DNA from: Candidatus Omnitrophota bacterium
Lineage (GTDB): Bacteria > Omnitrophota > Omnitrophia > Omnitrophales > Aquincolibacteriaceae
Length of the DNA: 64,000 bases
Direction of reading: 5' to 3'
Assembly (NCBI GenBank): GCA_022711115.1
Contig: JAKLFP010000002.1
Coordinates: 15,674-79,673 of the forward strand
This document shows, piece by piece, positions 1-31,486 of the stretch (positions within the stretch are counted from its first letter, which is position 1; each line of letters opens with the position of its first letter). Below the pieces are notes generated by a model, which saw nothing but the letters and a program-made list of their open reading frames with translations, made no database searches and was not told where the DNA came from. The position numbers were made by a program, and so were the translations under genes.

Positions 1-112
1 AAAAGTCCAGACACTTGCGCCGCAGTATTTCGGGATCGATGCCACACTGAGTGGAATAAGTAGTAAGACGGGGCCCATTACGGCGAGCGACCTTCTCCAG
101 GCCCGCCAGTTT

Positions 113-3100
113 TTGGGGAACGCGAATAGCGGTTTGGTCATGAAGGCCGGCGATATCCTGGCCAATCAGATGGTGAAGAACTGGGATTCCGCGGCGCTTG
201 GGCTGGCGGAATATTATTTGCAGAAGGCCGTGCTGCCCCTTGTCAGGCAATATACCAATGTGGCCAATGCCGGAAAGCCGCCCACGGGGGGTGTCAAACA
301 GAGCGTTCTTGACGTGATCAAATGGGGCCTGCGTGCGCTGCCCGGGAACATGCTCTTTTTCATCACCTACAACCTGCACTGGAACTATTATCCCGTTTTC
401 ATGTATCCCCTGAACAGCGCGGTGGGGATCGACAATTTCGGCCGGCGCCGCCAGGAGATCTTCAATCCCCAGACCCAGGGCTGGGAATCCCTCTACACGC
501 TGGATAAAATCCGGACCGTCAACCGGGATTTCGTCAATGCGCTGAGCGTCAAGATCAATACCACCTATTCCTCGAACGATCCCATTGTGCTCGGCAAAAG
601 CGCGGTGACGGCCAATGTCCTCTCGCAATATACGAACGTGATGGATCAGTTTATGGAAAACTCCGGCATCCAGCTGGACGGGACCCTTGCCGGCGGAAGC
701 TTCTCGTATCAACTGGATGCGCTTCGCACGGTACAAACAGGAGCCATGACCATCGGCGGGGTCACCCAGTGGGGTATTTCATCGATGCAGCTTAAAGCCC
801 TGAACGGAATGTTCGTGTCCGAGAGTTATCTCTGGGGGTCGCAGGGACAGATGATTGGCACGGTTCAGGAAATCAAGAGCAAGTTCGGCGTCCTGACCGG
901 TGTCATGAGTCTTGCGGCGGACGGGAGCCGGACCTACCGGGGTTATTTCGGGACCTTCGACGAGGTAGGCCATATGGTGGAGCTCCTTCAAAACGCGTCG
1001 CGCGATTCAAGCGGCCGGCTGATCAACGCCGAAATGCGCACCGTGTACGATACCGCGGGCGGCCGGTTTGTCTGGACGAACTACAACGATCAGAACGGTT
1101 TTGTCTCCTATGACTCTTCCCAGGTTTTCAGCCATGGCCGGCTTGTTTCCGAAATGAACGGCGTGATCAGCCGCGAAATTGCCGGGAATCAAATTCTTCA
1201 GGCGGTCTCAGTCAAGATGTTCGGGGAAAACGGGGACGTCACTCAGATCCGGAATTACGTGGAAACCAACGGCATGGTGTTTTTTGGGTGGATGGGGACC
1301 TCGACCGTGGAGCAGAACGTGATCAAGATGAAGTCGGAAATTTTCAACGGAATCATGAAAGACAATGAATTGCTTTATGCCGGAAAACTCATCCAGTCGA
1401 CCGGCAGCTGGTCGACCATGACCTTTACGGATTACGAGCGCCAGGCCAACGGCGTTTTTACGGCGAGCCGCATGGCGGATTCCAACCGCGGGCTTGTGGC
1501 CACCGGTGTCCTGAACATCCATAACGAGATCATCACCGCAGACTCCTATTCGGTCGGGGGCATGACCATTACCAATTATTTCAAGGACTTCAACGGTAAT
1601 ATCCACTTCAGCCGTCTTGATAACCCTTCCCAGCCCAGCATCACGAATGGAATCCTAGACAGATTTAACCATATCATCGCCGGCGATTTCATAATAGGAG
1701 GCCATTTATTCACGTACAGCTCGGCTGTCACGGATTTGTACGGAAAAGATGCGTTACAAATCCAAATCCATACCGCAGACATCCTCGTTGACAGTAAATA
1801 TTATGATACGGAGACCGGCGAATTCATCGGATGCGACCACGTGTCTCAAGGCGTTAGTAAGGGCTTTTATGATCCGAGGGTGTTTACAGAGGTTCTGGCC
1901 GTGATGAAAAATAAGGATGGCGAAATGTTCACGGGAATGGCCAAAGAATATGTGACGGATGCGGGTACCAAGTTTCGTATTGTTCAAAGCGGCGTGGCTG
2001 AAATCGACGGAACCTGGACATTGAATGCGGATATGAAGTCGTGGGTCGTGTATACAGATAGTTTGATTAAGACGGTCGAAGCTGACACCGGAAGACTTCT
2101 GCAGATTTATGACCCGTCAACGGGCGTGTCAACGACTGTAGCGAGGGCAGGAACCCTCGGCGCATTATTCGATCAGTGGCCCAATTTGTCCACCTTCGAA
2201 AAAGCTGAGGTAATTGTGATGGGAGCGATTGCGGGCGTCCTTGCTTTCGGTATCCTATCGGCAGTTGGGCTCGCAATGGGCGTTGCCTTGGGCTCTCTTT
2301 TGGTTACCTGGGGTTTGGCAGCCAAGGTATGGTCCAGAAATATCCGGTCCATTGCATCTAATATAAGCGATGACTTGGTGAAGGGTTTAAATACTTTGGG
2401 TAATCTACTCACGTCCGTTGGGACTCTCGGTTTGGGTGGACCGGTGTACAAAGGTATCAGCGGTTTGAAAGTTGCCGCCGGAGTTGTCTTAAAATTGCGG
2501 CCTTCCTTTTTCAGTACTTCTATGACGGGTTTTCTCAAAGGTGTGAGAATCTCCCTCTTTGCTGTGCCGGCTCTGGGGGTAGGTATGGATTATGTGGGTG
2601 GTCAAATCCAGTCCCAGACGCTTCAAAAGTTGGGCGATCTCCTTACGATGGGACTCACACCGGGTGAAGTTCTAGTCATGTGTCCCGCATTTTTCGGCAT
2701 GGACCTTCTGAAAGCTATGAGCACCATGGGCAAGTCCGTTTTCCTGATTCCGGGGTTAGCATTTTTAGGAGGCGGCGCGTTGTATGCCGGATATCAAATT
2801 CGGCTGAGCTGGCAGGAATCAAAAGTTTTTTCGAACCGCACTCCCAATACCATAAATATATTCGGATGGGAAGTCGGACTTTGGGGATCGATAGGGCTGG
2901 GCGTTGGTCTGGCAGTCGCAACCATATTGGGAGTGAAATTCCACCTACCGCTGAACAGGGCTTTCTTTTGGATGGAACACAGCAAGTTAATGAAGCCGAT
3001 ACTTCCCATTTTAGTCAGCAGCAAAAGGCTGGGCCTGGAAGGATTTAAGCTGGGTCTTTTGGGCTCCCCGCTATTTTTGGTTGGTATGGGCGGCGGTCTA

Positions 3101-6100
3101 TTATACGGTTTGATATGGGACCGGGATCATTTGGTGCGAGACATTCTTATTGGTGGATTTGGAACCGTAATCGGTATTTCGCTTTTGGGCGCAACGGCCC
3201 ATGGCTTAGGCCTTTTTGCCGGAACTTATTCTTTATCCATTGCGCGGGGTCTTTCGGGGGGGCGGGCCTTCATGAACGGGATAGCCGAAGCATCCAAGAA
3301 TTTTATGGTGAATTTGACGCGGAGTATTGTCTTTCAGACGAGGTTCGGGATCGGACTTAACGCGGGCGCCGCGGCTGCTAATTTTTTGTTTAATATCGTT
3401 ACCCGGGGCTCCTATAACGATGCCATGATGGCGGCGCTCATAAAAGCCCAAAACAGAGAATCTTTGACGATGGGGGAGTCGATCCTGGTCGCGATGTTCA
3501 ACCTGGGGAGAACGGATATCTCGCCTTTTGAAACGGCGTATCAGAATACGTTCGGGACGCAGATGTTCGGGGTCCCGACCGCGATCATGTTTGCGACCGG
3601 CATTCCTTTGATCTCAAAGGCCATGGAAAGCATCCCTCTTGTGGGCGGTTTGCTTCAGATCGCCAACAAAATATCCGGTGCCCTGCCGAATTATTTTTCA
3701 AGCCGAACCGGAGAGTTCGGGCGTTACGCCTTCGGGTTTATGGATGAAGGCATCCTGGAGCCCATCATCGGATGGACTTTGGAGCAAGTCGGAATCGGCG
3801 GCGCGGAAGGCACGTTCTGGAATGACGTCAATAACATGCTGCAGGAATCGGGCTCGGCCATTGAATCCAATCGCCTGCCCCCGATCTCCCAAATGCTCCT
3901 GTCCGGTGGAATCAAAAGCCTATCCGCTCTTGAAAGTCTTTATGGTTCGGACAATTTGACAGCCATGCTGCGGGAAAGAGTCGCATTCTTGAAGGGGGTC
4001 GATATAGGTACGGTCACAGGAGACCAGGCCAGCCTGCGCGTTCAACTCGGCAGCCTGCTTTTTACCGATTTCTCCAATGCAGCCGCTTTTTCGGATATCG
4101 ATACGATGACGAATTTTGTGGAGGCCCTTGGGATCTCGGAACAAGGCTTGAGTCAGCAGATCATTAGCGGGGCCCTGGCCGGGTCCATTGACCGGACAGC
4201 GGCAACGCGCGTCATCGGCAATATCGTGGGTGTTGCGCCCGGAGCGGTCACCGCCTTTTCCCATGTGATTGCGAGTGCGGTGAACAATCCCACGATCGGA
4301 GCCCAGAAATTTCATGAAGGGATCATGGAACTTGCGCGATTGCTCGTGCATCCCAATATCAATCAGACCCAGATCGACCTGTGTGCTGCATCCATCGGAC
4401 TCGGTCAGAATTTTTATGCCAATCTCGTGAGCCAGGCCCAGGCGGTACCAGGCGCCCAATCCCTGGCTGAAGTTTTTCGAAATTCGGTGGCTTTTCAGCT
4501 GGGTTCTAATGTCAAGGCCATCCAGAGATTTGAAACAGCCTTTAACGACGGGGATTCGCTTGCGGACATTCAGGCCCTGGCTACGGACTTGACGACCAAG
4601 GTGTACGGCAGCTTTATCGCCTTGGAAACCACGGTCGACATTTTCAGGCAGGCCGGACTTCCGGACACTTCGCTTGAGGCGGTCCGTCAGCAGCTCACTC
4701 CCCAAATGTTTATGGAATTCAATTTTTGGAATACGAGCGAGAGGCTCGAATTTTTAAACAGTTTCCTGGCCCAAAATACGATCCCCGGTTTGCCGGCTAA
4801 ATTTCCTGAGGTCGTGACCGCGCTTCAGACGAACGTGCGTCAGAATGCCCCGCTCATAGAAATCTTGTCAACCGTGGGTCAATTGCCTGAAAACATGCGT
4901 TTTGCGGCCATGCTTTTTGTGGCTCCGCAGCTTCAGACGTCCCAATATCAACAACTCAAGGACCTGGTTTCTTTCGTGAATTCCGTCCCGGATCTGGCCG
5001 GGGTGAGCGAGAATTTGACCCTGGATGTAGCGCTGGGCGCGTTACGCACACCCAAAGATTTGGTCTTGGCGGTCCGGGGGCTGATCGGAAAGGCTCCCCC
5101 CGCGACTCAGCAGTTATACGGGGATGCGCTCACAGCGTTTTATGTTCAGTTGTTGATCAGACCTGCCAATTTGTCGTGGACTCAGGTCCAATCCATCATT
5201 ACCAATCTTAAAGTGCAGGGGGATGTGGGCCTCAGTCCCGAGCAGCAGGCGTTCCTCACAAGTGTGGTCAGCATGTCCAATATCCCTGCGGCGGAGCTCA
5301 GTCAGACCTTGAGCAGTTTGAGCGGAGTTCCCGGATCCAATCAGTTGACCGCGGTCCAGCTCGCCCGTGTGACGCATGTGGCTCAGTCGCTTGTGAATCC
5401 GGATCTGACAAGTGCAAATCTTGCAGGGCTTCTTGCCGGCGCAGGCTGCGGCCTGCCGGAGATGTTTGCCGTATTTAATCTCGCGGCAACGACACCCGTC
5501 CTGAGCGGCATGACCTTCATGGATTTTCTGGATTTGCATCACGAAGCGCTCGGTTTGCAGTCGCTCGTGGTATCCGGATTGAATGTTGGATCGGCCCTGG
5601 CGGATCTCAAGCAGGCTTTGCCTCCTGGCGACTCTCCTGATAGTTTGACCATGCCGCAGATATATACCGTGGCTCAGAGATACGCGGCATCCTCCCAGAC
5701 TTCAATCAATGACGTAATGCTCACGCTGCTCAACTTGGTGCAGCCTTTGCCTCAAAATGCGCATCTTGTGGAGGCTTTCATGCTTGCCCAGAGGGTGGGG
5801 GTGGACATGTCCAGCCTTACGGTGGCAAATTTTATGCATCTGAATGTGGAAGCCCATGCGACGCCGCTCCAGGTGTTGGAGTCAATGGGTATGACGGACA
5901 GCAATTCAGCGTTGCTGAGTGATAACGATGTGCGGGAATTCCTTAGTACGGGATTTAGTTCAGCCACAGAACAGGGATTTCAGGCGGTTTTGAATTACAT
6001 CAATCAGATGCCGCAGTTTGTGAATACCCCCATGACGATGCAGGAACTGCTCCGCTTGGTTTGCCTCGGCAAGCCGGTGAAAGTGACGCCCCAGCAGCTC

Positions 6101-21100: not shown

Positions 21101-24100
21101 ACCCAGGACGATCATCACGTGCAGATCCAGAGGGTGGAGGAGGTATCCGAGCCGGAGCGGCCGGACGTGGACATTCAGCTTTCCAGGGAACGGGTGCTGG
21201 GCAGGGACGCGGGCGCCATGGATACGGGTTTTGCCCCGGTTCCGAAGCTCGAGAAGACAAGGACAAATTATGATGCGGAGGCCACCCGGGAGGTCAGGAT
21301 TTTTACAGGAAGTGAGCAACGTCTTGATGGCGGTAAGGTAAGGCTTCCTTTTGGGTTCGACTGTAGCGAAACGGATTGCAAAAAGAACGCGTCCATCGAG
21401 CTTCCGGCGCAACTTGCCGAGCAAGTGAAAAAAGACCCCAGGATTTTGGAGGATCTTGTCCGGGGCCGTGTGGGGATCGTCAAAATCGGAAACGAGTATT
21501 TCCTCGGCGGATCTGACAAGGAAGGTTATCATCTGGTGAATTTGGGGAGCGAAATCAATATGCGGACCCTGCGGGTCATTCAAGGCCTCAGGCACGATGC
21601 CCGGCTGGTTCGCATGGATGCCGGCGGCCGCATCTTTGTAGGCCGTGAGGAGGATATTCATTTTGACGGAGGGGAAAGCCAAATCGAGAATTTGGGTAAA
21701 GGTTCTGTGTTTATTGCCGGTTCGGACGGGATTTGGATCGTCGAAAATGTGAAAATAGGCGAGCAGGTCGTGATTGAAAGCAGCCGTTTGCAATCAACCG
21801 AGAATTGCCAAATTGAGAGAGGGGCCCAAGTGCGTCATTCTTCGCTAAGGGCCTCAAAAATCAATATTGGAAAACGGACCGTGGTGGACCAGGTTATGGA
21901 TTCGCGGAAAACAGAGTTCACGCTTCCTGCCAATGCCCAGGTCGTCGGCGTGACAGGGACGAGCGGCTCGATGGATACCGGGGAGGTTAAGGAAAGCGAG
22001 AAGTTTTTTGGAGTTGTGAATGAAACAGGGGAGTTGCTGCCAGTCGAGTCAGGCGAACCGGAAACCTATTATGTATTCAACCGCGGACTCATGGGCCGAA
22101 TGGACCGGCTGCTCCGGAGCCTTCATCTCATCATTGATCCTGCGCGCAAAGCGCTGGATATTGCAGAGCTGCATCACGATGCTGTGATGACGCTGGAGCA
22201 GGAATCCGGCATGTCACCCGACGACCTTGCGGCGCTCGGTCCGCATGCTGCGGAACTGATCGGTGCGCGGTCTGAAAAAGCGGGTTGGCCTGAAGTTCTG
22301 ACGCGGACCGCCTATCGCACCGTCCAAGCTAGTGTTGTTGTGGCAAGCCTCCTGTCGCTTATCGGACTGATTGTGGCGGCCTGTTTCAGTGTCGTTGGCT
22401 GGCCTGTGGTGATCGCTGCGGTTATTGCGGCGGCTGGGGTGAATGGCCTTGTCTGGCTGGAACATCGCGTCCAGGCGGTCAATAACCTGATTCGGAATCA
22501 TTTTGAAGGTTCCGCGCTCCGGGAACTTTCGACGATCATGTTGCATCGCCAGGTTCCCAAACAGGCTAGGATCGCTATGATACTTCTTTATCATCAACTT
22601 CGCGTTCGCAGTGAACAACCCTTAACCCCAAATCAAGCGGCGCAACAAATTCTCCGGTCCGGGATGTCGGTCCTGGGAGTCGGATTTGCCGCGCAGCAGC
22701 AGAATGAAAACCGGTATTCGGTCAAATTCCGTAAATATCAGGAAACGGTTAGGGCAGTGCGAGACTCCATGGATCAGAAGGTGAGCGCGGAGCTCTCCGC
22801 CAAAATTCTGCGGCGTGTGGCGATACCGGTTTTCGCAAAGGACAAGATGAAATTAGCCCGGATCTTAGGCGGCGCGGTCCATCGGTTGGATAAGACGGCG
22901 GAAGGTTATCCTTCGTATCAGCCGCTTTTGATTTCTGCTATGTATGAAACCGTGGTTTATAAGAGCTGGAAGGACAAGATCCGCGGGTGGTTCAAGAACC
23001 AGACTGTTATGAGGGTTGTCCAGGGGGCGCTGACCGTGATGGTCGGGGCTGCAGTCCTATGGACCCTGCCGATGCTCCTGCCTGAAATCGGCGCGATCGT
23101 GATCCTGAAATTGGGATTCGCGACGCTCCATGCCAGTGTCTTTATTACGTTGCTGAAGGGGTGGCTCATCATGGCAACCCTGCAATCCGTTTTGCGCAGA
23201 GCCGATTCGATCCTTGCGAGCGACGAAGCCCAGAAGAAAGCTCTTGAGGAGGCCCGGATCCAGGGATATGGAAGGATGAGCATGCTATGGAAACGACTTA
23301 AAACGAACCGGATGATGTCCAGGCTGTTCTCCTACAAGCTCTTCAGTTATGACGCAATCAAAATGACCGGATGGTACAAACTACCGGGATGGATTTCCGA
23401 CCGGTTGGCCGCGTGGGCCGGAGGGGATGCTGAAACGCTTTTACGGCGGGCGCTTGGCGGGCTTGGACACGGCATGGGGCAGAATTACTGGCGGGAGGGA
23501 TTGATGGTTGCTCATGCCCGGTTGCTGGAAATAGAAGCCTCGAACGTGTCCGAAGAAGTTAAGGCAAAGGCGCGAAGCGATTTTCAAAAGCTTGCCCGGT
23601 TCGTGACGGAAAGGCGGCACAACCTAAATTGGGATGATGCCAAACACAGCGATGACACTTACCGAGAATTTGATAATTTATTCAAAACTTTCGATCCGCT
23701 GCTTCTGGATGCATGGCACAGCGCGCGCAAGCACGAGCGTGAGTGGTCGATTGAGGAGTTCTTTGTCGCCAATAGCAACGATGAAGAGGTCGTGCATGCT
23801 TTGGCTCGCCTCGCGTCCTGTACGGCCCGCAAGGTCGACATGACAAGAAATCTTAAGCAGCGCGAAGCCATTGAAGCCATCAAAAAAGATCTTTGGGATC
23901 CCTTCCTGGCCCTGAAACAAAAACTGGACAGCGGCCGGGCGAGTGAGATCACCGAGGATGAAAGGGCCCTTGCGCAGGAAACGCTCGGTAAACTTCTTGC
24001 GGAATTCAACCTGGGCGCAGAGCCTGGGAAGGAGCTGACCGTAGGAGACCTGTTTGAGGGTGAATATGATCCTTCAGTAGCGCGTCAGGACCGTCTGATG

Positions 24101-27100
24101 GTCCCGGTCTTCCATCACGGCAAATACTATACCCTGGGATTGGTCCTCAATATAGGCACTTTGGCTGAGGTGTCCGATATTCCCTTTGTGAGAAATCAAT
24201 TGCTGCGCGCTCAGGCAAACCGTACCCTGCTTGAATCGAATCCGCAGGGCTTTGAAGAACTCTACCTGCGGGCGCGTCAGGACTATCTTAAAAAAATGGG
24301 CAAGCCGGCGGATGCCATGGGCATTACCTTTATCGTGGAGACAAAAACAGCCAAGCGTCTCGCCCTGAAGCATTATGCCAAGGGGCAGCTTCACGACGAT
24401 GCATTCTCGGGAACCCGGACCTTTAACGCGGGCACTATTTATGAAAAAGGCTACTTTGCCTCGATCGATATTTCGGTGCTGAGAAAGGAATATGCCAAGG
24501 GATCGAATAGTCACGAGGTGCAGCACTTTATTCATCCCAATGCATCTGGCCGAGATATGGAAACCAATATCATTGAAGAATTCATCAACTATATGTTTCA
24601 GGAGGACGCCGACACCTTTGATGTGGATTCCGGGTCTTTATACGATCTGGAAAAGATCGTCGAAGAAAAAATTGAGCAGTACCTCCGGTACAATGAAGGC
24701 GACAAGCTGATGGATCATTTTACGCAGGATGAATATGTCAAGGCCAAGGTCCGCGCCCAGAACGCTTTGAAATCCGTGCTTGCGTTCCGGATGGTGCTTC
24801 GCGAAATCCTCGCCCAAAGGCAAGTGCTGGACCCGGAGGCCATGGCGAAAAGGCTCGTCAATCTGTTCCTCTGGAATGCCCGGTCCTTTGATGATCTGCT
24901 GGCGATTCAATCCGTGATCCAGGACCGGGGCCGCGCCGTGGAATTTGTCAACCTCCTTGCGGAGATGGGTGTGCTGGGGGAGGGCCGCGAGGATTTTCTT
25001 TATAACGCAGACGAGATCGCAACGGACAAGGCTACCGTGAATGCCGCACTTGAGCGACGTCTCCAGGCCCAGCTTATCGAAGATTATCAACGTCAAGGCG
25101 TCGCGGCGGCTCATAGCCGCTTGCGGCAGCATCTTAGGTCCGTCCAAAAGGCATTCGAGCGTGAAAAGGAACTGATGAATTTAGGTATCGATCATTATAA
25201 GCATCAAATCATGATGTATGAGCGCCAGGGCAAGGACACGACGGAATTAGAAAGCAAACTGAAACAGGCCGAGCAGGAGCTCAAGAACTTCGAAGAGGCA
25301 CATAAGAAGTTGATGAGTTCGCTTCAGAAGAGTCTGATGGATGGCATGTTCGGTACAGCGGCATTCAGAAAAGACGTGCTGGATATGGGGCAAAACTTCA
25401 GGCAGAAGAAGGAGGAGTTCCTGAAGAGCTTTGGCGAGAAGGTGGCGCTGCACCGGAAGGATCCCTCGAAGGACGATCTGTTTAAATTTTTGGGCAAGGA
25501 GCTGCCGCTTTTGGCTGAGACGGCGCGCAAAGGCCTGGTGGGTTTTCAAGATCAGCCGGAAGCGGAGATCGATAAGGTCCTTGCGGAGATTCAAAGGGAT
25601 TGGATAGAGGCGCTTCACCTTTCTCTCATGCATGATCTCGTGAAGGCGGATTCCCTGAAGGCCTATGGACGGATGGAGCGGGAATTTTACCGGATGTATG
25701 AGATCATTACGAGCGAATCCGAGAAGAAGATGCGCTGGCTGGATCCGATTTCGGTCCAGGACCACCGGCGGGCCAAGCTCTACGAAATTAACCCTTCAAG
25801 TATTGCCCGCTACGGTTTTGCTTTCAAATTCATGAATGACTCGCTGGAGCGTATCCTGCTCGGGCAGGACCAGGATGTGGATACGGATCGGCGGATTCAG
25901 ATGGCGGACCGTTTCAGGCTGCAGGTGGAAGCTGAGGCCAAAAAGAAAGAGCCCAAACAGCATCCCCAGATCCATCTTTGGGAGGAATTCGGGGCGCGCT
26001 ATCTGCAGGCCCTTTTCTGGAACCATACGAAACGGCCCGGGGTTGAAAAATTTATCAACACCACTCTGAAGGATGCAAAACACCGGGCCCTTGGCGATCA
26101 CACCACAAAACGCGTGGTAGACCGCAAGAACGGAGTTTATTTATCCGAGCTCACTACGGAGCGTGTAGAACTGGCTGATTTGATGATGCAGGCCCAATTG
26201 GATTATGAGTTGATGGTCCAGTGGACCTCCGCGAATAAGAAACTGATTACGACCGGCATGCGTTCCGTGGGAACGGAAAGCTTCGGGAAGGACGGTTTCT
26301 TCCGTCTGCTTCATAATCACCCGACCCACCGAAAAGGCGGGGTTGTCGATATCCAGACCGTGCCGAGTTTGACGGATCCGAACTGTGACGGCGTGCTGCA
26401 GCTTGTGACGGGCGGCAAGGCCTATATTGTCAGCGAATACGGAGTGACCCGTTTCTATTTGGATACAACGGTGGATACGCAGGGACTCGGGGAAGTGGTC
26501 TTTGATGACGGCATGCCGTATAGTTTTGAGGAGGCCTCTAAAAAAGCGGATGAGCGCGCCAAGAGTCAGAAGGGGTACAGTTTCGGATATCAGCATCAGG
26601 AGCCCGGGAAACCCGAGGTCAAGGTGAGGGTTGACTTCGTGCCCTGGCAGGCCATTGTACGTGCTGCTCAGCGTCCGGGCGGCATGGCCGCCGTCCATAG
26701 CTTTATGCCGTTTGTCATCTGCACCGATCCGGCAGCGCTGCGCCACTTGAGCAAAAAACTGGAAGCCTTTAAAGTGCCTGCTGCGCGCTCGGAAATTCGT
26801 TTAACTGAAGCGCCCGCACGTGCTGAACTTAAACAGGAGATGATTGAACAGAGACTTGATATTCGTATGCTGCTGACGAAGGTTTTGGGAGGACAGGTTG
26901 ATTGGATTTCCTTGCTCCCCGAACAGGGTTTCATGCCGGCTCCGTCCTTGCCGATTCAACCGCGTGAATTTGCCGGAGCCAATGCTCTCTTGCTGCCCGG
27001 GTCGCAGCAGGGGATACCTGGATTGTCGATTCCGCAGGTTCAGGGTTTGCAATTGCCTGGGATTACAGATCGGGATGTCGAGATTCGAGATAGAGACTTA

Positions 27101-28234
27101 AAAATTTACACGGATCGTTTCGGTAAGGCGATGCCGGCTTTGGAGAGCATGCCTGTACTATCCGAAACGAGTGTTGCAGATGCGGTTCAGGACAGGGAAA
27201 CAATATTCGAGAAAGCATTGCCTGCGGCAAGGGACATGGCGCAGGAGTTTTGGCGAGCGATTGTGAATCATAAGGATATGCTGGGACGTTCTGAGGTCAT
27301 GCCGGCGATTCCGGTCGATTTCAGCAATTCATCGAATCCGAGATTTAGAAATAATGAATGGGCATATATGGACCATGACACAGGCCGAATGGCTGTGAAT
27401 GCTGACAAGTTTGCAGGGATCACGGATTCGAAAATTATTGCCGAAATGCTCGCGATAGCCATGTTCCATGAAAGTATTCATGCGACGTACCATGGCGATA
27501 ATTATTATTTTACGGATCAGGGGAGACTCCTTGCCGAGGCGCAGGCCCATGCGATCACCGCGGCAGCGATGAAGCTTGCTGACGCTGACCGGTTGCGCCG
27601 TGGAGAAACTGCAAAGTATGCGGGGCAGATCGAGAACATGGTCGCCTGGGTCAGGCTCATGTTGGATGCCCAGAGACCTGAAAAAGTTCCGCCGGACGTG
27701 TTGCAGATCATTGAAAGCATCATCCGTCCGTCTGCCAAGGGCCTCGGCCCCAACGAAATTCTGATCAATTCACTGATGCAGGAAGTCTATGCGATCAGTG
27801 ATCCCAGATTCAATAGCCAGCCCGGAGTCATACCGATCGAAGGTATCAAAGATCTCGAATGGAGAATACCGAAGTTTTTGAGCGAGAAAAATACGGAGCG
27901 ACGAGTCTTTGTGGTATCGGAACAGGAATATCATCGTTTACAGCTTCAAAAGCCGTTAGAAAAGCTTAAAAACCATGGGTATGCTGTCTTTATATTCAAC
28001 GATGAAGAGATCCAAGCGATCTTCGGCGACAGAACCGTGGGCGCCATCTATCAGTTAGCCCGGCTTGCCGCAACGCTCGGCAAAACCGAATTCGTGAACT
28101 TGATGAAAATGTACAGAATTGATCCTTATGACCGAAGAGGATTTTTCTCTGTCGCTGCATGTTTCGAAAGCCAGGTTATTAAGTCCCTGATCCATGAAAT
28201 AGAATCCCGACAGCAAGTCGCGGTAGCGGCGTAA
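113..28234 (+). CDS. Giant multi-domain membrane-anchored protein (>=9,373 aa) carrying an embedded SecA-like ATPase motor and candidate metallopeptidase motifs. The frame is open to the 5' window edge, so the true start may be upstream; the first in-frame ATG is at 140.
   Basis: One stop-free frame of 28.1 kb. In-frame codons from position 2 to 113 contain no stop. The translation has coherent domain-like segments (hydrophobic helix clusters, alpha-helical repeats, beta-rich region, SecA motifs) and is not low-complexity. Confidence 0.85.
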   Translation: MGNANSGLVMKAGDILANQMVKNWDSAALGLAEYYLQKAVLPLVRQYTNVANAGKPPTGGVKQSVLDVIKWGLRALPGNMLFFITYNLHWNYYPVFMYPLNSAVGIDNFGRRRQEIFNPQTQGWESLYTLDKIRTVNRDFVNALSVKINTTYSSNDPIVLGKSAVTANVLSQYTNVMDQFMENSGIQLDGTLAGGSFSYQLDALRTVQTGAMTIGGVTQWGISSMQLKALNGMFVSESYLWGSQGQMIGTVQEIKSKFGVLTGVMSLAADGSRTYRGYFGTFDEVGHMVELLQNASRDSSGRLINAEMRTVYDTAGGRFVWTNYNDQNGFVSYDSSQVFSHGRLVSEMNGVISREIAGNQILQAVSVKMFGENGDVTQIRNYVETNGMVFFGWMGTSTVEQNVIKMKSEIFNGIMKDNELLYAGKLIQSTGSWSTMTFTDYERQANGVFTASRMADSNRGLVATGVLNIHNEIITADSYSVGGMTITNYFKDFNGNIHFSRLDNPSQPSITNGILDRFNHIIAGDFIIGGHLFTYSSAVTDLYGKDALQIQIHTADILVDSKYYDTETGEFIGCDHVSQGVSKGFYDPRVFTEVLAVMKNKDGEMFTGMAKEYVTDAGTKFRIVQSGVAEIDGTWTLNADMKSWVVYTDSLIKTVEADTGRLLQIYDPSTGVSTTVARAGTLGALFDQWPNLSTFEKAEVIVMGAIAGVLAFGILSAVGLAMGVALGSLLVTWGLAAKVWSRNIRSIASNISDDLVKGLNTLGNLLTSVGTLGLGGPVYKGISGLKVAAGVVLKLRPSFFSTSMTGFLKGVRISLFAVPALGVGMDYVGGQIQSQTLQKLGDLLTMGLTPGEVLVMCPAFFGMDLLKAMSTMGKSVFLIPGLAFLGGGALYAGYQIRLSWQESKVFSNRTPNTINIFGWEVGLWGSIGLGVGLAVATILGVKFHLPLNRAFFWMEHSKLMKPILPILVSSKRLGLEGFKLGLLGSPLFLVGMGGGLLYGLIWDRDHLVRDILIGGFGTVIGISLLGATAHGLGLFAGTYSLSIARGLSGGRAFMNGIAEASKNFMVNLTRSIVFQTRFGIGLNAGAAAANFLFNIVTRGSYNDAMMAALIKAQNRESLTMGESILVAMFNLGRTDISPFETAYQNTFGTQMFGVPTAIMFATGIPLISKAMESIPLVGGLLQIANKISGALPNYFSSRTGEFGRYAFGFMDEGILEPIIGWTLEQVGIGGAEGTFWNDVNNMLQESGSAIESNRLPPISQMLLSGGIKSLSALESLYGSDNLTAMLRERVAFLKGVDIGTVTGDQASLRVQLGSLLFTDFSNAAAFSDIDTMTNFVEALGISEQGLSQQIISGALAGSIDRTAATRVIGNIVGVAPGAVTAFSHVIASAVNNPTIGAQKFHEGIMELARLLVHPNINQTQIDLCAASIGLGQNFYANLVSQAQAVPGAQSLAEVFRNSVAFQLGSNVKAIQRFETAFNDGDSLADIQALATDLTTKVYGSFIALETTVDIFRQAGLPDTSLEAVRQQLTPQMFMEFNFWNTSERLEFLNSFLAQNTIPGLPAKFPEVVTALQTNVRQNAPLIEILSTVGQLPENMRFAAMLFVAPQLQTSQYQQLKDLVSFVNSVPDLAGVSENLTLDVALGALRTPKDLVLAVRGLIGKAPPATQQLYGDALTAFYVQLLIRPANLSWTQVQSIITNLKVQGDVGLSPEQQAFLTSVVSMSNIPAAELSQTLSSLSGVPGSNQLTAVQLARVTHVAQSLVNPDLTSANLAGLLAGAGCGLPEMFAVFNLAATTPVLSGMTFMDFLDLHHEALGLQSLVVSGLNVGSALADLKQALPPGDSPDSLTMPQIYTVAQRYAASSQTSINDVMLTLLNLVQPLPQNAHLVEAFMLAQRVGVDMSSLTVANFMHLNVEAHATPLQVLESMGMTDSNSALLSDNDVREFLSTGFSSATEQGFQAVLNYINQMPQFVNTPMTMQELLRLVCLGKPVKVTPQQLQVFSRIMDSFLALGFSELHLNFSQIQTVLASPSDLEALKALRSITGTGNPAVDTFLDELITIVDQPTLGQLRELQRHFVGVPPPALTDLLLLLHLTSAAELAPGVVQLPLTVPLPGTNISTIMVSEAMLARIAANFEINLTDLTVDQLAEALFNVNNIPPTAMADLEKNIANFVRAMAVQTGKPQPVFPDQATLVRVYLARELLLAIRTETGAPISTSLLKQVFVQFGLMNLDLQLFIQRELGLTPVADVSGFLSTMTRNNSMTQGLNRLLAAEDTLVNRLAFVDALGIPRNSALVGDIPTLPQEIKALALQCLTALSNMPEGAIGVLNFERLVSNLLWRNSQPAAVQNYLGSLTVYELSQLTQTQRDNLVMQLTFLMGQEPSVQAPILSRLSALEIAGMTSQEMTDFAVRIQSLDGYQTTMRLIVANRLAGKDNLLEGISIDPAEQNLWNTFHPVLKAMSIKSIRDIAEVFSTVTARSVARNGFNAEAFFKMLMVKAMLLQISPSHGLGTLTEFEVLENVTVLLSDSTNSLGQVFRNLDVVISMVGQLTTDDLARMTQEQMRNLIVNLFAKDGLDNLAAHDSLWPVLIQILKGNYASQIDTQLNALKTFYDAFKNNQEVMVRMSQLGQDAAAAFLNNILLIQTDTNLVPQLLDVILLTNLGDSVSQITQAGNGFQVTMASGQIRFVKADGALNIPNQIDLGNGYSLAQTTSSPEGPSTYTISSSNGIPIGTLTVSSGEHPAITLNITLGGNNVPVTIDGDLSRLQTTTQNGNLVVIIQSGSEMRRITLGQNGQQVVENFDLSETVTEAPMTLPNELTFSIDADNIFRLQSGSLSFTVDGHEYEMEFEGGVLAETIQFNGEGELVFMDAQGDRHQVNALAGGNFVETVHQVSGGIRTVVRNHTGAPVQTIDGVTNVTHTATGVTVVGQNAVTLTISADSNSMTIHVSGPVGVPGPAVPLVASNLMLSNEGIVMGLSEDRSTLWISAGGQSFSVNTSTQIITESTNASAIGSTLYYAPAGGFIIVNETGIVMEIIGDVGNIRQGDLAVPVAADSLQNVRPSVIFYDENVDQVTGVIGDTGPNFSLPQGSQVQTINGTRIVTAHPIQAVDLSFHAEDLMGAFNEHSLMRDEFPNEWFQGALNNIRTRLMNGEEVSKEEWAEVLNQILQIRQRAEDYQRILDSVEADSAIRDRLGSALLELLAKAADINSSMTLEEIQRLNRRLLEAFFPLQIQATFSNPTYSYQPAGSNASVQVDANGQIVVTAVTPAWKEIFLRLPGGSHYTVLQNGSVVYSVQRPDRGFNTVVVSLDGVMTVNGVSFLLDESTQIAMGLSGEVILNRGPPIRILDDGKVTVGGGLVQQGTVVHLKDGQAIIYYTDTRIISNQDASTQATHPWILQIKETRIPLAADLVSAEVRPDGSVIIIVEEANGLVHSHLIQPDGKTATDFDINGIGPINQSIPVSQLPQTGPATSPAVANPPAPNVTVPPVQFPNPVSEIDLTDLSPQSPAQTLQIPNVGVITVQVVPAGDGSIRFEIDATSLLQPITLLLPGMTPEGQTPHVTFVTVTPIGSLIQVTTSTPGNPQFVITEVPIVHIENLAHPVSVTTPNGVVTVLPVNPAQGTPPTIDTSGLTGPVQLELPGVGSLTVTPPADPSGNFTLGDLNLTAPVRIRLPNGTNFDIPAQSNGEMQFPGSIIIGNTTGKIRIDSIVVNANGVLQNLFIVFGNSRITLWPGDYVGVNIWSSPSGEINGLVINNVFDTQTYFYRPFGPEGQLTLRGPLPQTFLLLQDSFIQHLNAQNLNQANQVIEAMIGALSQDVQRPGALEAMRHVVFDALVLLQNQLIAQSLVPQAITNLTRIMVLLGSLTQGQPSSVQADMKVRLAGALIQLQTQLAELNFTQLQSLNNVLTELNQAISDFLRNHPAPDIEEALKKMQQGIAKGILRHAQEASNLDAAVQAIGLNAGVRILKQAPTIEEIQGLVKVAQANGQEYLLFFSSELGRYVLYTSGSQSGGVTTGSPEFRDYLRNDPNVFVVAHTHHEVQDPSDLDLKEFGQSRRDFEFIFTPAGVTILYKETGKDGEIKVNFIHVSYGSIPSEFFGILGALAQSQDVDLVVFMKLLGMLDQSLGEKTVIRRQYNLPFGTLTDLLKQNELPRVADIVKTWMDTGGTTRADQSLALKVLTLRALVNFYVDYPNKTVQLLNLLREISNDLSQPENFSMVDTALLRNVLLQAMSLWSQELMRARTQYLLDNGPSAASHPAKERIRLLGKILLQLKNLDQQAQLNKRTWLTRLFARPQTGQVDAEEIELLGLGAIRGVEEADVEVVLFEENQSDLEYTLRSNALNLLKAQMNLVGLRAPIHFLIVPNAQAVEADGSVLYFTVDDITGVIGLQTKIRDFVQRTGIGITAAEVAEEAEASAASAAAEQAAADKAAKETKRAAPPSGSVPTDAPLTTATPETAAGSTPSVPSTPAATPASLATPVTPSAALPTVAEIGQQLNRLRSQRSMRREENEASNRQGTSAFTNADAETLRQWVLRIASIDQQCEALVQGLSDEELKVLLSTDNETRLLRGEALELRDDHSAPDFAARELVKRGVVNAVGAPVTPASPTLTPESAGPAQGNVVPPAKPVSPARDEVEAPRSEPLEVEEIMIPEEPAESFGGNRMLQLISRIMKFEAKLKELRTQWEAALKQNEKAKQEQISLQEMTLLRQLSDEVEPLIKLLSEDAWFQTAIQKEFFSGRSEYTSLVRLMERGQEREFVQTLMEATARGMVEYEGGNFPAEEQINRISQLLPKGAEGFASDFYRVARGYLDGLRQQIAQQTQAPISPAAPTESAPRGASPRTEVRGGDINISNLGPGAAVSHTTANQRFGRAITNQKAAIEALGIPADRVDDFLDLGQTPDGVRVVILNAEEITDEEFDQLGHAGLTRNVVYVLRRGSENYWPVAGHELAELTLWKTLEYQLRQQGEIARFGETNSSKPRDIRAWIQLQMQTANGRERVRKYEAFFDRMAAAVQEILTDLINQDAWAIRTVDDLSAFVREKIEELQRPAAELQGRSVADIILRQTEQDFKIRKQEETIQRLEDGIRTWEDALKGMAQHERLRVMVRSGAGGAIKSYTRQEIESRIRMLRSQLKREQVALEGLQGELKLARTELKEESKAQAKVAVPAARNEFEVFFSPERRNEGLSTENEVALGVLAKDILSDAEGQLLESWFEYIRSRNRQGDPLNEEALKYFLELLSIDYEGLKKQPGWNLQGLTWISKLREVAQFLKQFHALRKDFTNLSSEHSPLLDKVFQALVRLYLVSVRRLSRGTGLELILQARHIEKIVSGLIEKEVADKTARSVIRASLITLLSTETITSTIQRVAGLFDGLQGKLIDRQELMDKVLKGQEDKWSKLLPAAGKVSRAEAAQAAGEAAQTYLANNGNPPGKPEDKIVAKDILVDGASLEGLAEEAMREKGEKMQKSLTATAHRILRAILETTSMTHEQIEEVMTDLTNCFDKETGELIDRDKYRTTLNRLVGDQDSELNAYIRDVLATRIDQLRVMGQSALGHTEGFDTFVRESLALVNLAYMMSYGRSDAEAYRGVQSLTAAAATGYGIANFGTGEGKTKTSAMVLVVHFLRSPKDRPVMHIVSQDRFAQDNLGEIHPILSYLGIGHDRLSRSDDNNKKSGMLQHDGIVYTSVSTFVFEFLTDRAKSKGEHVFPYDEAEVNPLPFIMNMDEVDSIAIDQSLNAFIIASAAQQAPTQEYALKSICDEIASFMVRGNLIMRVSDKRLQEIRQSAKDGEDLGRQVLAFVSDSGQTHLTQQGKRYVREVVAQAVTEYGFKKPYQGDLEDPANDWLWKQIGNAFGPHTGQYAANRNVSISSNGEVKNIDQATGSHQNTKTADGVHQAIEVALSKLFPNQGITVSSDHSQTTDRITFRQFIELLAATTKVEHGGRKVRVRQLSGYSGTAQEVSKNLKEDLGLPGENKPVVTIPSFAPKVRDSHATWYINRWSDAMKNHKLEFINIRIRRGGAPKIMKFEHGNTAAAVRQWMKRDHARALERVRLDSGYKQLSDAQILSKIEEEWATDKLSPQAFDVIRSKMERGLQLSTDEELLLAKFWLLTLDEFQIYMYDGTESFAQEKKILDRDGGEANALTIGTNILGRGKDFKLLDQNQLMELLELLLTPEEFEKLAHSVGEAFKKLKDKDLRTSVGEGEGDPRNDNTEKFKKIEKLLTEHITDAFQEIIKTKEGNGRVNLVRIRDAFLARAYGYQMFREVAKSARSDTQSRGRAGRQFDIGADFEFMVFEDADQLNEESEEISSSRKSFDEGFPHLDYNSSRWINRFLNQPPAKGGAQTLTRLLFVAAPLAIFGIVVGLAAPPVAATLAALIAFAPGLFAIMTLRRDSLVHPEHGVVKKITLSSFIKDRISRKAFFFTNAHQLTVAGLSVMGAIAAGVLVFALGAGLVSVIAGGAVLALVYSSFVLRSWAANLNLGFISRMIQTPGEKMDRRFYGILTQTQYNKIGKLDTKAVAEMDRFKAISQEGHEWFYSQQRSYQNRFDAFLESFLSPFIAGANRLDWTKKDDQEGKAENAPGALGKVLNGIFGKRLQTAPVYEASMIVAAAFALPLLVPFGGLIALALVGGYFVGKNYKRLVQRSIVPIQYIHAYLDRIFYDYEAAMVQYEKRYFELLKKKTPTEIQKAVHQKMKKEGLDQKQAYDSVINELNAETNDLLNHPPAFELRDKVACYDPAAKRFGGLRPKKSTLIDFDLTLPKPVPQVSAQSGEYAKLVRQAKADFKALRDQVENLRRDLESQDLTKLITPEILRHLHGMVRSEFIERAQKAQNEFYDQRINILGLVVGIPLMLAAGSLGWLVGRSTWLSKYVQKWLKAEPGFFSWARAVMMHKWLKGWIGSYVGLLVLNYLDMNLNLADWMARKMAEDAVFIGRNARFDAIHGKRDDLAMNAILSGFVGNVLAPVAEKESEKRTPRSTTEAPSKLKWYQDPYSRVQVYTEDDSRLRNGEAAELVATQDDHHVQIQRVEEVSEPERPDVDIQLSRERVLGRDAGAMDTGFAPVPKLEKTRTNYDAEATREVRIFTGSEQRLDGGKVRLPFGFDCSETDCKKNASIELPAQLAEQVKKDPRILEDLVRGRVGIVKIGNEYFLGGSDKEGYHLVNLGSEINMRTLRVIQGLRHDARLVRMDAGGRIFVGREEDIHFDGGESQIENLGKGSVFIAGSDGIWIVENVKIGEQVVIESSRLQSTENCQIERGAQVRHSSLRASKINIGKRTVVDQVMDSRKTEFTLPANAQVVGVTGTSGSMDTGEVKESEKFFGVVNETGELLPVESGEPETYYVFNRGLMGRMDRLLRSLHLIIDPARKALDIAELHHDAVMTLEQESGMSPDDLAALGPHAAELIGARSEKAGWPEVLTRTAYRTVQASVVVASLLSLIGLIVAACFSVVGWPVVIAAVIAAAGVNGLVWLEHRVQAVNNLIRNHFEGSALRELSTIMLHRQVPKQARIAMILLYHQLRVRSEQPLTPNQAAQQILRSGMSVLGVGFAAQQQNENRYSVKFRKYQETVRAVRDSMDQKVSAELSAKILRRVAIPVFAKDKMKLARILGGAVHRLDKTAEGYPSYQPLLISAMYETVVYKSWKDKIRGWFKNQTVMRVVQGALTVMVGAAVLWTLPMLLPEIGAIVILKLGFATLHASVFITLLKGWLIMATLQSVLRRADSILASDEAQKKALEEARIQGYGRMSMLWKRLKTNRMMSRLFSYKLFSYDAIKMTGWYKLPGWISDRLAAWAGGDAETLLRRALGGLGHGMGQNYWREGLMVAHARLLEIEASNVSEEVKAKARSDFQKLARFVTERRHNLNWDDAKHSDDTYREFDNLFKTFDPLLLDAWHSARKHEREWSIEEFFVANSNDEEVVHALARLASCTARKVDMTRNLKQREAIEAIKKDLWDPFLALKQKLDSGRASEITEDERALAQETLGKLLAEFNLGAEPGKELTVGDLFEGEYDPSVARQDRLMVPVFHHGKYYTLGLVLNIGTLAEVSDIPFVRNQLLRAQANRTLLESNPQGFEELYLRARQDYLKKMGKPADAMGITFIVETKTAKRLALKHYAKGQLHDDAFSGTRTFNAGTIYEKGYFASIDISVLRKEYAKGSNSHEVQHFIHPNASGRDMETNIIEEFINYMFQEDADTFDVDSGSLYDLEKIVEEKIEQYLRYNEGDKLMDHFTQDEYVKAKVRAQNALKSVLAFRMVLREILAQRQVLDPEAMAKRLVNLFLWNARSFDDLLAIQSVIQDRGRAVEFVNLLAEMGVLGEGREDFLYNADEIATDKATVNAALERRLQAQLIEDYQRQGVAAAHSRLRQHLRSVQKAFEREKELMNLGIDHYKHQIMMYERQGKDTTELESKLKQAEQELKNFEEAHKKLMSSLQKSLMDGMFGTAAFRKDVLDMGQNFRQKKEEFLKSFGEKVALHRKDPSKDDLFKFLGKELPLLAETARKGLVGFQDQPEAEIDKVLAEIQRDWIEALHLSLMHDLVKADSLKAYGRMEREFYRMYEIITSESEKKMRWLDPISVQDHRRAKLYEINPSSIARYGFAFKFMNDSLERILLGQDQDVDTDRRIQMADRFRLQVEAEAKKKEPKQHPQIHLWEEFGARYLQALFWNHTKRPGVEKFINTTLKDAKHRALGDHTTKRVVDRKNGVYLSELTTERVELADLMMQAQLDYELMVQWTSANKKLITTGMRSVGTESFGKDGFFRLLHNHPTHRKGGVVDIQTVPSLTDPNCDGVLQLVTGGKAYIVSEYGVTRFYLDTTVDTQGLGEVVFDDGMPYSFEEASKKADERAKSQKGYSFGYQHQEPGKPEVKVRVDFVPWQAIVRAAQRPGGMAAVHSFMPFVICTDPAALRHLSKKLEAFKVPAARSEIRLTEAPARAELKQEMIEQRLDIRMLLTKVLGGQVDWISLLPEQGFMPAPSLPIQPREFAGANALLLPGSQQGIPGLSIPQVQGLQLPGITDRDVEIRDRDLKIYTDRFGKAMPALESMPVLSETSVADAVQDRETIFEKALPAARDMAQEFWRAIVNHKDMLGRSEVMPAIPVDFSNSSNPRFRNNEWAYMDHDTGRMAVNADKFAGITDSKIIAEMLAIAMFHESIHATYHGDNYYFTDQGRLLAEAQAHAITAAAMKLADADRLRRGETAKYAGQIENMVAWVRLMLDAQRPEKVPPDVLQIIESIIRPSAKGLGPNEILINSLMQEVYAISDPRFNSQPGVIPIEGIKDLEWRIPKFLSEKNTERRVFVVSEQEYHRLQLQKPLEKLKNHGYAVFIFNDEEIQAIFGDRTVGAIYQLARLAATLGKTEFVNLMKMYRIDPYDRRGFFSVAACFESQVIKSLIHEIESRQQVAVAA
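2200..3700 (+). other. Membrane-spanning helix cluster 1 of the giant protein (about 9 hydrophobic segments)
   Basis: Hydrophobic stretches such as 'EVIVMGAIAGVLAFGILSAVGLAMGVALGSLLVTWGLAA', 'IFGWEVGLWGSIGLGVGLAVATILGV', 'ILIGGFGTVIGISLLGATAHGLGLFAG' and 'MFGVPTAIMFATGIPLISKAM'. Confidence 0.6.
13290..14030 (+). repeat. Ala/Pro/Thr/Ser-rich low-complexity linkers inside the giant protein
   Basis: 'AAEVAEEAEASAASAAAEQAAADKAAK...TPETAAGSTPSVPSTPAATPASLATPVTPSAALPT' and 'GAPVTPASPTLTPESAGPAQGNVVPPAKPVSPA'. Confidence 0.6.
16700..18560 (+). other. SecA-like DEAD motor domain (NBD1-PPXD-NBD2) embedded in the giant protein
   Basis: Motifs 'ANFGTGEGKTKTSAMVLV' (SecA Walker A 'MRTGEGKTL'), 'IMNMDEVDSIAIDQSLNAFIIAS' (SecA '[20 protein letters not shown]'), 'ADGVHQAIEVA' ('DGLHQAVEAKEG'), 'RITFRQF...SGYSGTAQ' ('ITFQNYF...AGMTGTAD') and 'TIGTNILGRGKDFKL' ('VTIATNMAGRGTDIVL'), in canonical order and spacing. 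Confidence 0.75.
19090..20660 (+). other. Membrane-spanning helix cluster 2 of the giant protein
   Basis: Segments 'LTRLLFVAAPLAIFGIVVGLAAPPVAATLAALIAFAPGLFAIMTL', 'LTVAGLSVMGAIAAGVLVFALGAGLVSVIAGGAVLALVYSSFVL', 'MIVAAAFALPLLVPFGGLIALALVGGYFVG' and 'ILGLVVGIPLMLAAGSLGWLVG'. Confidence 0.6.
22320..23180 (+). other. Membrane-spanning helix cluster 3 of the giant protein
   Basis: Segments 'ASVVVASLLSLIGLIVAACFSVVGWPVVIAAVIAAAGVNGLVWL' and 'VVQGALTVMVGAAVLWTLPMLLPEIGAIVILKLGFATLHASVFITLLKGWLIMATL'. Confidence 0.55.
27467..27481 (+). other. HEXXH zinc-metallopeptidase-type motif ('FHESIHATYHG') in the C-terminal region of the giant protein
   Basis: In-frame 'cat gaa agt att cat', in the context 'IIAEMLAIAMFHESIHATYHGDNYYF...LAEAQAH'. 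A downstream Glu is available as a possible third zinc ligand. Confidence 0.3.
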
Positions 28235-31310: not shown

Positions 31311-31486
31311 CAGGGCACCTGACTTTCTATAAAATAAAAAATCGGGAAGTCAGTGTAGCCCTGAGGGTCCATTGGGAAAATAAAGATATCCATCAGGGCA
31401 CCTGACTTTCTATAAAATAAAAAATCGGGAAGTCAGTGTAGCCCTGAGGGTCCATTGGGAAAATAAAGATATCCATCAGGGCACCT
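31308..31486. repeat. Perfect 83-bp tandem direct repeat (2 full copies plus 13 bp of a third) in the batA-batB junction; each unit carries an imperfect stem-loop
   Basis: Unit 'catcagggcacctgactttctataaaataaaaaatcgggaagtcagtgtagccctgagggtccattgggaaaataaagatatc' sits at 31308-31390 and 31391-31473, then 'catcagggcacct' at 31474-31486. Inverted-repeat arms are 'cagggcacctgactt' and 'aagtcagtgtagccctg'. Confidence 0.9.

Follow-up and report, generated by a model that had tools for sequence, protein, structure and literature searches.

A giant Omnitrophota gene predicted to join a divergent SecA-like motor to membrane hairpins

Introduction

What kind of protein is encoded by a plus-strand reading frame that fills the first 28 kb of a 64,000-nucleotide stretch of DNA (hereafter the window) and is still open at its edge? 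The original prediction for this locus held that proteins of this size are very rare in bacteria and that this combination of domains had not been described. Within the Omnitrophota, open reading frames exceeding 20 kb are present in most genomes, and these giant ORFs are sparsely annotated for domains and poorly conserved (PMC10066038). The combination of SecA with membrane regions is a published hallmark of the large and giant proteins of this phylum (West-Roberts 2023; Seymour 2023; 2026 preprint). According to West-Roberts et al., the class is characterized by numerous transmembrane regions and a divergent SecA DEAD domain without scaffold or wing; most members have such domains, the adjacent transmembrane regions are a likely anchor, and annotated domains are mostly extracellular, with ‘large’ denoting proteins of at least 10 kaa and ‘giant’ those of at least 30 kaa (bioRxiv 10.1101/2023.11.21.568195). 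The 2026 preprint drew on 229 genomes to catalogue 916 Omnitrophota proteins that reach or exceed 10 kaa, with at least one such protein in 93.8% of complete genomes, membrane-spanning helices or a signal peptide in 94% of the long proteins, and a SecA_DEAD architecture cluster of 20 members among the two largest clusters (10.64898/2026.06.07.730766). For a 39,678-aa protein of V. archaeovorus, peptide evidence for expression is reported (PMC10066038).

Results

A reading frame that extends beyond the window

Frame 2 of the window runs from base 2 to a TAA codon at 28232–28234, and its translation comprises 9,410 codons with one stop, the terminal one. Residues of the giant protein are numbered here from window base 2. 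One stop-free 28-kb frame with a first TTG at 113, a first ATG at 140 and this terminator had been predicted, and all of these positions were verified: the ORF listing gives a plus-strand ORF at 113..28234 of 9,373 aa counted from the TTG, and the longest ORF in the other frames within 1–28234 is 338 aa. Given the base composition of the ORF itself, a run of 9,410 codons free of stops would occur by chance with p ~1e-185. GC contents of 0.59, 0.40 and 0.61 at codon positions 1, 2 and 3 constitute a coding signature, and the coding periodicity is present in each 3-kb tile. Plus-strand ORFs outside the minus-strand genes reach at most 67 aa elsewhere in the window, leaving this as its only substantial plus-strand gene, as had been proposed.

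Synonymous codon usage in the giant gene (2–28231) differs from that of 28 neighbouring genes (28709–63995; chi-square 434, 41 df). GC3 is 0.61 in the giant gene versus 0.49 in the neighbours, overall GC is 0.53 versus 0.45, and G-ending codons are preferred (CTG 0.30 versus 0.18, CGG 0.30 versus 0.14, AAG 0.52 versus 0.32, CAG 0.66 versus 0.46); within the final 1.2 kb of the gene, GC3 drops to 0.44. Possible origins of this gap are foreign descent, a mutation bias linked to strand or transcription, and selection on the translation of a very long mRNA.

Using the BatB-like neighbour protein (29265–31310, minus strand), we located four public contigs that carry the locus: JGI 3300010429 (339,784 bp), JGI 3300009838 (48,287 bp), ENA ERZ761563 (48,230 bp) and ENA ERZ27257456 (48,221 bp). 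The giant gene is called on these contigs at 14,634, 14,633, 14,610 and 14,639 aa, respectively, and all four calls end 0–2 nt from the contig end and are thus still open. The suggestion that the gene continues upstream is therefore borne out; it spans at least 44 kb, its product has at least 14,639 aa, and the window holds roughly the last two thirds. Because at least 5,200 further codons (~15.7 kb) lie upstream, the TTG at 113 and the ATG at 140, once offered as starts, are internal codons. We take the source metagenomes of the four contigs to be anaerobic-digester sludge.

Across 13–22 kb, a span that takes in the terminal 8,970 nt of the gene, the four loci match the window with 100% identity, and the assemblies represent four samples, two centres and different assemblers. 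An identical, uninterrupted frame recovered from independent samples, centres and assemblers makes mis-assembly or a hidden frameshift very unlikely, in keeping with the earlier argument against an artefact. Were the frame nonetheless the product of a chimeric or collapsed assembly, or did it hide a sequencing error that would split the gene, one might point to the public contigs, which all break near one place (within ~90 nt, ~43.9 kb upstream of the stop codon) and so mark the locus as hard to assemble. This reading is scarcely credible given the agreement across samples, centres and assemblers, a single frame that stays open for ~43.9 kb in 4/4 assemblies, the ~1e-185 chance expectation and the coding periodicity along the entire ORF; moreover, unrelated pieces in a chimera would not keep frame.

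The common breakpoint upstream may reflect a repeat or variable stretch in the gene that breaks short-read assembly. Three of the contigs, those of 48 kb, also begin within 12 nt of one another near window 32617–32629, and both shared contig-end points suggest repeats or strain-variable sequence. Look-ups of public contigs returned none that reaches further upstream, and no locus for the first 500 aa was found in genome contigs or metagenome contigs. Since all contigs are identical, they contain no strain variation for dN/dS.

Host and chromosomal neighbourhood

In a search of 185,579 species genomes, the five best matches to the DnaK encoded in the window had identities of 89, 88, 87, 84 and 76%; three of them are labelled Omnitrophota or Omnitrophica MAGs and two ‘uncultured bacterium’; all other matches were at most 69% identical. 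By this one marker, the host is an Omnitrophota bacterium. The remaining 36 kb of the window contains minus-strand genes only, encoding YqeY, BatA/BatB/DUF58/MoxR, DnaK, a sigma-54 response regulator and kinase, the trp operon, ABC-F, the his operon, AlaRS, RecX, RecA, PlsY, SMC and FabF. The giant gene indeed converges on this minus-strand housekeeping block, beginning with YqeY, the Bat/MoxR operon and DnaK, and the genes around it are ordinary chromosomal ones. Neither tRNA genes nor Rfam elements were found in the window.

Two tandem repeats lie close by. A perfect 83-bp duplication (2.2 copies, 31308–31486) separates the BatB-like and BatA-like genes, with one unit fewer in contig k141_10900 (ERZ27257456), such that copy number differs between samples. 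An imperfect 66-nt repeat (2.5 copies, 87% matches, 29660–29820) is found inside the BatB-like VWA/TPR gene.

Anatomy of the visible protein

The regions that we distinguish in the visible 9,410 residues are collected in Table 1, with membrane segments and topology assigned by hydropathy only. Hydrophobic clusters A, B and C together contain at least 10 strong segments (Kyte-Doolittle 19-aa mean ≥1.6). The strongest segments in cluster A are aa 729–778, 953–985 and 1043–1075, and cluster B consists of three hydrophobic stretches of 41–54 aa, candidate helical hairpins, plus one single segment. From their hydropathy, several hydrophobic stretches of 41–65 aa across the protein look like helical hairpins. 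Within aa 1240–6360, hydropathy reveals no hydrophobic segment strong enough for a membrane helix.

Table 1. Coordinates of the giant gene and of the regions distinguished in its visible product
Feature	Position (nt)	Strand	Basis or remarks
3′ part of giant gene (9,410 codons + TAA)	2..28234	+	Open frame; gene calls on four public contigs
Low-charge N/Q/S/T/G-rich region, aa 1–728	2..2185	+	K 4.0%, N+Q+S+T 27%; no family match
Hydrophobic cluster A, aa 729–1207	2186..3622	+	Kyte-Doolittle; glycine-rich, ~8–10 candidate membrane segments
Leu/Ala-rich, lysine-poor region, aa 1240–2700	3719..8101	+	K 1.8%; no repeats or family detected
V/T/G/N/P-rich region, aa 2701–3800	8102..11401	+	K 0.8%; beta-rich-looking composition; no family match
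Low-complexity A/P/T/E-rich linkers, aa 4431–4680	13292..14041	+	Boundary between lysine-poor and highly charged composition
SecA-like ATPase motor (predicted), aa 5536–6320	16607..18961	+	Profile matches, motifs, AF2 model
Hydrophobic cluster B, aa 6360–6882	19079..20647	+	Hydropathy; collinear with P0122
Charged region between clusters B and C, aa 6883–7435	20648..22306	+	Conserved in P0122
Hydrophobic cluster C, aa 7436–7731	22307..23194	+	Hydropathy; one 53-aa and one 65-aa stretch
Highly charged C-terminal region, aa 7732–9410	23195..28231	+	K 6.7%, E 8.2%

Composition switches at ~aa 4430, from 0.8–4% K and 25–29% N+Q+S+T before this point to 5–10% K and 7–11% E after it. Only 18 cysteines occur in the visible 9,410 aa. 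BLASTP self-comparison yielded no off-diagonal match, either for the whole protein at E≤1e-3 or for seven regions at E≤1, which upholds the view that this is not a simple repeat protein. Of the distinct regions originally described, the hydrophobic and catalytic (ATPase) ones are present, whereas the ‘helical-repeat’ region is not supported, as repeats are not detectable. Searches of the visible 9,410 aa with Pfam and NCBIfam profiles gave no match to adhesin, CAZyme, dockerin or peptidase families, and neither family nor structural support was found for aa 7732–9410.

Separately, aa ~7230–7330 (21689–21991) gave sub-threshold matches to LbH_EIF2B (E=0.007) and Hexapep (E=0.42), and the stretch is conserved in P0122, a relative described below. 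It could be a left-handed beta-helix.

A divergent SecA-like motor

Profile searches assigned two parts of a SecA motor: Pfam SecA_DEAD (PF07517, E=7.4e-19) at aa 5536–5952, corresponding to NBD1, and P-loop_SecA (PF21090, E=1.5e-5) at aa 6147–6316, corresponding to NBD2. The preprotein cross-linking domain PP_bind (PF01043), a PPXD-like insert, was matched below cut-off at aa 5824–5919 (E=0.005), and no further Pfam domains of note were detected in the visible 9,410 aa. NCBIfam secA (TIGR00963) was matched at E=2.6e-24 with 85 bits, relative to an equivalog cut-off of 800. In an alignment of the giant motor with canonical SecA proteins and four relatives, the motor motifs are all kept: GTGEGKT (Walker A, nt 16883–16903), DEVD (Walker B, nt 17231–17248), DGVHQAIE, SGYSGTA (nt 17915–17935), TNILGRGKD (GRGKD at nt 18500–18526) and RSDTQSRGRAGRQ (RGRAGRQ at nt 18869–18907). 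On these sequence features the motor is apparently catalytically competent, and a divergent SecA motor is the sole recognisable domain predicted in the visible protein.

The motor departs from canonical SecA at its C-terminal side. No PF07516 match for the SecA scaffold and wing was obtained, although one is present in every canonical SecA match, and the alignment reaches no further than motif VI, the point from which canonical SecA runs on into the helical scaffold. Past the last motif, a short acidic stretch is followed by the membrane hairpins, the first of which begins at aa 6360, ~40 residues beyond the motor.

An AF2 model of the motor had a pLDDT of 63, with NBD1 at ~85. Compared with the PDB, its best 36 matches were all SecA or SecA2 (E 5e-19 to 2e-11), with the best target coverage for 3bxz, the isolated E. 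coli motor (TMt 0.69–0.71); other SF2 helicases matched only at E≥2e-5. The model confirms the SecA assignment, but not independently, because its alignment consisted of SecA sequences.

Relatives retain the motor and hairpins

A HMMER scan with aa 5500–6699 against 1.84 billion representatives returned 275 matches, mostly ordinary SecA. Two of these reached E≤1e-30, and both are fragments. P0121 is a 402-aa fragment with 36% identity to aa 5439–5834. P0122 is a 1,840-aa giant-gene fragment collinear with aa 5744–7404 at 24–28% identity, a span that comprises motor and cluster B as well as the charged region, with its possible left-handed beta-helix, and the next hairpin. In the longer relatives P0126 (5,111 aa) and P0132 (3,155 aa), likeness to the giant is limited to the SecA part. 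The collinearity of P0122, together with the SecA-only likeness of the longer relatives, points to a conserved core of motor plus hairpins in an otherwise orphan protein.

P0126 carries glycine-rich membrane repeats at its N-terminal end, and its SecA-like domain apparently retains scaffold-like sequence after motif VI. As an intermediate form, this protein may link canonical SecA to the motors embedded in giants.

Searching metagenomes with an alignment of the giant and P0122 gave 31 loci and no giant; nearly all are ordinary SecA genes of ~800–980 aa, and a few are shorter or truncated SecA-like fragments. Against a 5.8-billion protein set, the SecA-like region matched canonical SecA only, at no more than 57 bits. 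Residues 1–1300 and 8000–9410 had no match in this set, which missed the giant itself too. The longest match was 1,304 aa in one of the two large protein collections and 5,111 aa in the other. Because neither collection returned a recorded giant protein, missing homologues of the orphan regions are weak evidence.

Export, topology and processing

Overall, the explanation that we favour, with a probability of roughly 0.6, is that the window encodes the C-terminal 9,410 residues of an Omnitrophota SecA-type giant membrane protein that works by the following export mechanism. The protein's own hairpins would serve as an inner-membrane anchor. The tethered SecA-like motor, which would face the cytoplasm because ATP is needed, would drive either segments of its own polypeptide or partner proteins through the membrane. 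The N-terminal portion, poor in lysine and rich in N/Q/S/T, would be exported, surface-exposed and in touch with other cells for attachment, epibiosis or predation, following proposals for the class, and the charged C-terminal ~5,000 residues would remain cytoplasmic. We thus infer that the gene product may function as a membrane-anchored, possibly self-exporting surface protein for cell-cell interaction. The compositional split at ~aa 4430 agrees with export of the N-terminal part and retention of the C-terminal part in the cytoplasm.

The absence of a membrane segment from aa 1240 to 6360 would, under a simple topology, place lysine-poor aa 1240–4430 and the motor on the same side of the membrane. 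Such placement does not fit the export model unless cleavage or an unconventional route is involved, and the misfit admits two rival models, one with proteolytic processing and one in which the protein is mainly a cytoplasmic platform. Also weighing against the favoured model are the missing adhesin, CAZyme, dockerin and peptidase matches in the visible residues and a downstream neighbourhood of YqeY, the Bat/MoxR operon and DnaK in place of the pilZ and sugar-import genes described for many giants. As a platform, the protein would be tethered to the membrane with most of its length in the cytoplasm, aa 1240–6360 included, and its motor would act as a dedicated translocase or unfoldase on substrates other than the giant itself. 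Both the uninterrupted stretch between aa 1240 and 6360 and the typically cytoplasmic composition of the C-terminal half are consistent with this arrangement, and the 2026 preprint reads many long proteins with only transmembrane segments as inner-membrane anchored, with cytoplasmic-facing enzymatic content. However, aa 1240–3800 are rich in N/Q/S/T and contain 0.8–1.8% K, which would be unusual for cytoplasmic proteins, partner or substrate genes are not evident downstream, and the annotated domains of the class are reported as mostly extracellular. We consider a cytoplasmic platform unlikely, while attaching real weight to it.

Proteolytic processing was suggested by short motifs. HExxH strings occur at aa 8171 and 9156, relative to a chance expectation of ~0.25 in 9,410 aa (estimated from His and Glu frequencies), and HxH...SxxD strings are found at aa 4063, with spacing one residue short, and at aa 8771, with an insert. 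No peptidase or JAB family was matched in Pfam or NCBIfam, even with 200-aa tiles at E≤10, no PDB sequence matched the JAB/zincin motif regions, and the two JAB-like stretches have no detectable mutual similarity. A single-sequence AF2 model of aa 8680–9410 was unusable (pLDDT 35). Assignment to JAB/MPN and zincin peptidases found no profile, PDB sequence or paralogy support, and the motifs are kept as motif-level leads.

If these leads were real, the protein could be a precursor cut by its own peptidase-like modules, with some products exported and some cytoplasmic, and such processing would remove the topology problem. The motifs at aa 4063, 8171, 8771 and 9156, set against the low chance expectation for HExxH, are in line with this idea, as are the sharp compositional switch and low-complexity linkers at aa 4431–4680. 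Furthermore, P0126 has HExxH and AHGH..S..D motifs beyond its SecA domain, near the C-terminus, and West-Roberts et al. bring up autoprocessing in connection with the C39 and S8 domains of other giants. On the other side stand the null results in Pfam, NCBIfam and the PDB, the lack of detectable likeness between the JAB-like stretches and the unusable model of aa 8680–9410; likewise, residues 2870–5111 of P0126, downstream of its SecA-like domain, have no significant similarity to aa 6330–9410. A self-cleaving polyprotein is, in our judgement, distinctly improbable.

A self-contained translocation machine is also conceivable, in which motor and hairpins would export or release aa 1–4430, and perhaps upstream residues, without a classical signal, after cleavage near aa 4431–4680 by cryptic HExxH/JAB-like modules. 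The conjunction of these steps strikes us as highly improbable; if true, both the processing and the export route would be undescribed for the class.

Discussion

Is this a new kind of gene? The claim that the domain combination is undescribed fails because that combination, transmembrane regions with a divergent SecA DEAD domain lacking scaffold and wing, is the published hallmark of large and giant Omnitrophota proteins. The implied rarity does not survive placement of the host in this phylum either, where ORFs above 20 kb occur in most genomes and proteins of at least 10 kaa in 93.8% of complete ones. The gene is not of a new kind: it typifies a documented but poorly understood class, and its discovery lengthens the list of members by one and leaves existing knowledge unchanged. 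Giant Omnitrophota proteins are abundant in genomes and none has a known mechanism. The present example is comparatively small, non-repetitive, chromosomally embedded and identical across several digester samples, and its SecA-like motor, with motifs intact and fused to hairpins, makes it a convenient source of constructs for tests of ATP hydrolysis and polypeptide translocation.

Comparison with known systems

The nearest characterized fold is that of canonical SecA and SecA2, with which the predicted motor shares the motor fold, Walker A, DEVD, SGxSGTA, GRGxD and RxxxQxRGRxGRQ motifs, and the PPXD-stem motif DGxHQAIE; the top structural matches are all SecA. Canonical SecA and SecA2 are stand-alone proteins of ~800–1,000 aa ordered NBD1-PPXD-NBD2-HSD-HWD, an organization that the giant does not have. 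In contrast, its domain is internal, starting no earlier than residue 5536 of a giant protein, has ~25% identity to canonical SecA, and carries long inserts in PPXD and NBD2. The helical scaffold, wing and C-terminal zinc-binding tail are absent, and covalently joined membrane hairpins would replace docking to SecYEG via the scaffold domain.

Among giants of the same phylum, the LiM protein of Velamenicoccus archaeovorus (39,678 aa, 42 TM helices) is likewise polytopic and huge. As summarized in PMC10066038 and West-Roberts 2023, it is the sole class member with peptide-level evidence for expression, with a proposed role in attacking other cells. By these descriptions it is far longer and holds many enzyme domains, carbohydrate-active ones among them. 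Unlike the Archaeovorin type, the visible 9,410 aa contain no GT, GH, methyltransferase, NUDIX or peptidase domain, and unlike the Dockerin type they contain no dockerin or TSP3 repeats (Pfam E≤0.1 in both cases).

The gene also resembles the PF07517 cluster of the 2026 preprint, whose very long membrane proteins yield essentially no Pfam match besides SecA_DEAD, and its status as a sequence orphan is typical of that set, in which singletons make up 80% of the clusters formed at 30% identity. This comparison is by description, between a set drawn from groundwater and the Baltic Sea and a gene from anaerobic-digester metagenomes.

The closest correspondence is with the class of West-Roberts et al. 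By their definition the protein is at least ‘large’ (14,610–14,639 aa called, with open ends), and it would be ‘giant’ if its full length came to 30 kaa or more. Unlike in many class members, the downstream genes are housekeeping genes and not pilZ or solute-binding and sugar-import genes; the class context, a type II/IV secretion-like locus upstream with pilZ and transport genes downstream, is frequent, not universal. As in that class, the host belongs to the Omnitrophota, and the protein exceeds 10,000 aa, has several predicted transmembrane regions and is mostly unannotatable. It is highly divergent from canonical SecA (best 57 bits), and it combines SecA_DEAD and a preprotein-binding domain without scaffold or wing with transmembrane segments adjoining the SecA part. 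From these sequence characters, we assign the giant gene as a further member of the described class of large and giant SecA-type membrane proteins of the Omnitrophota.
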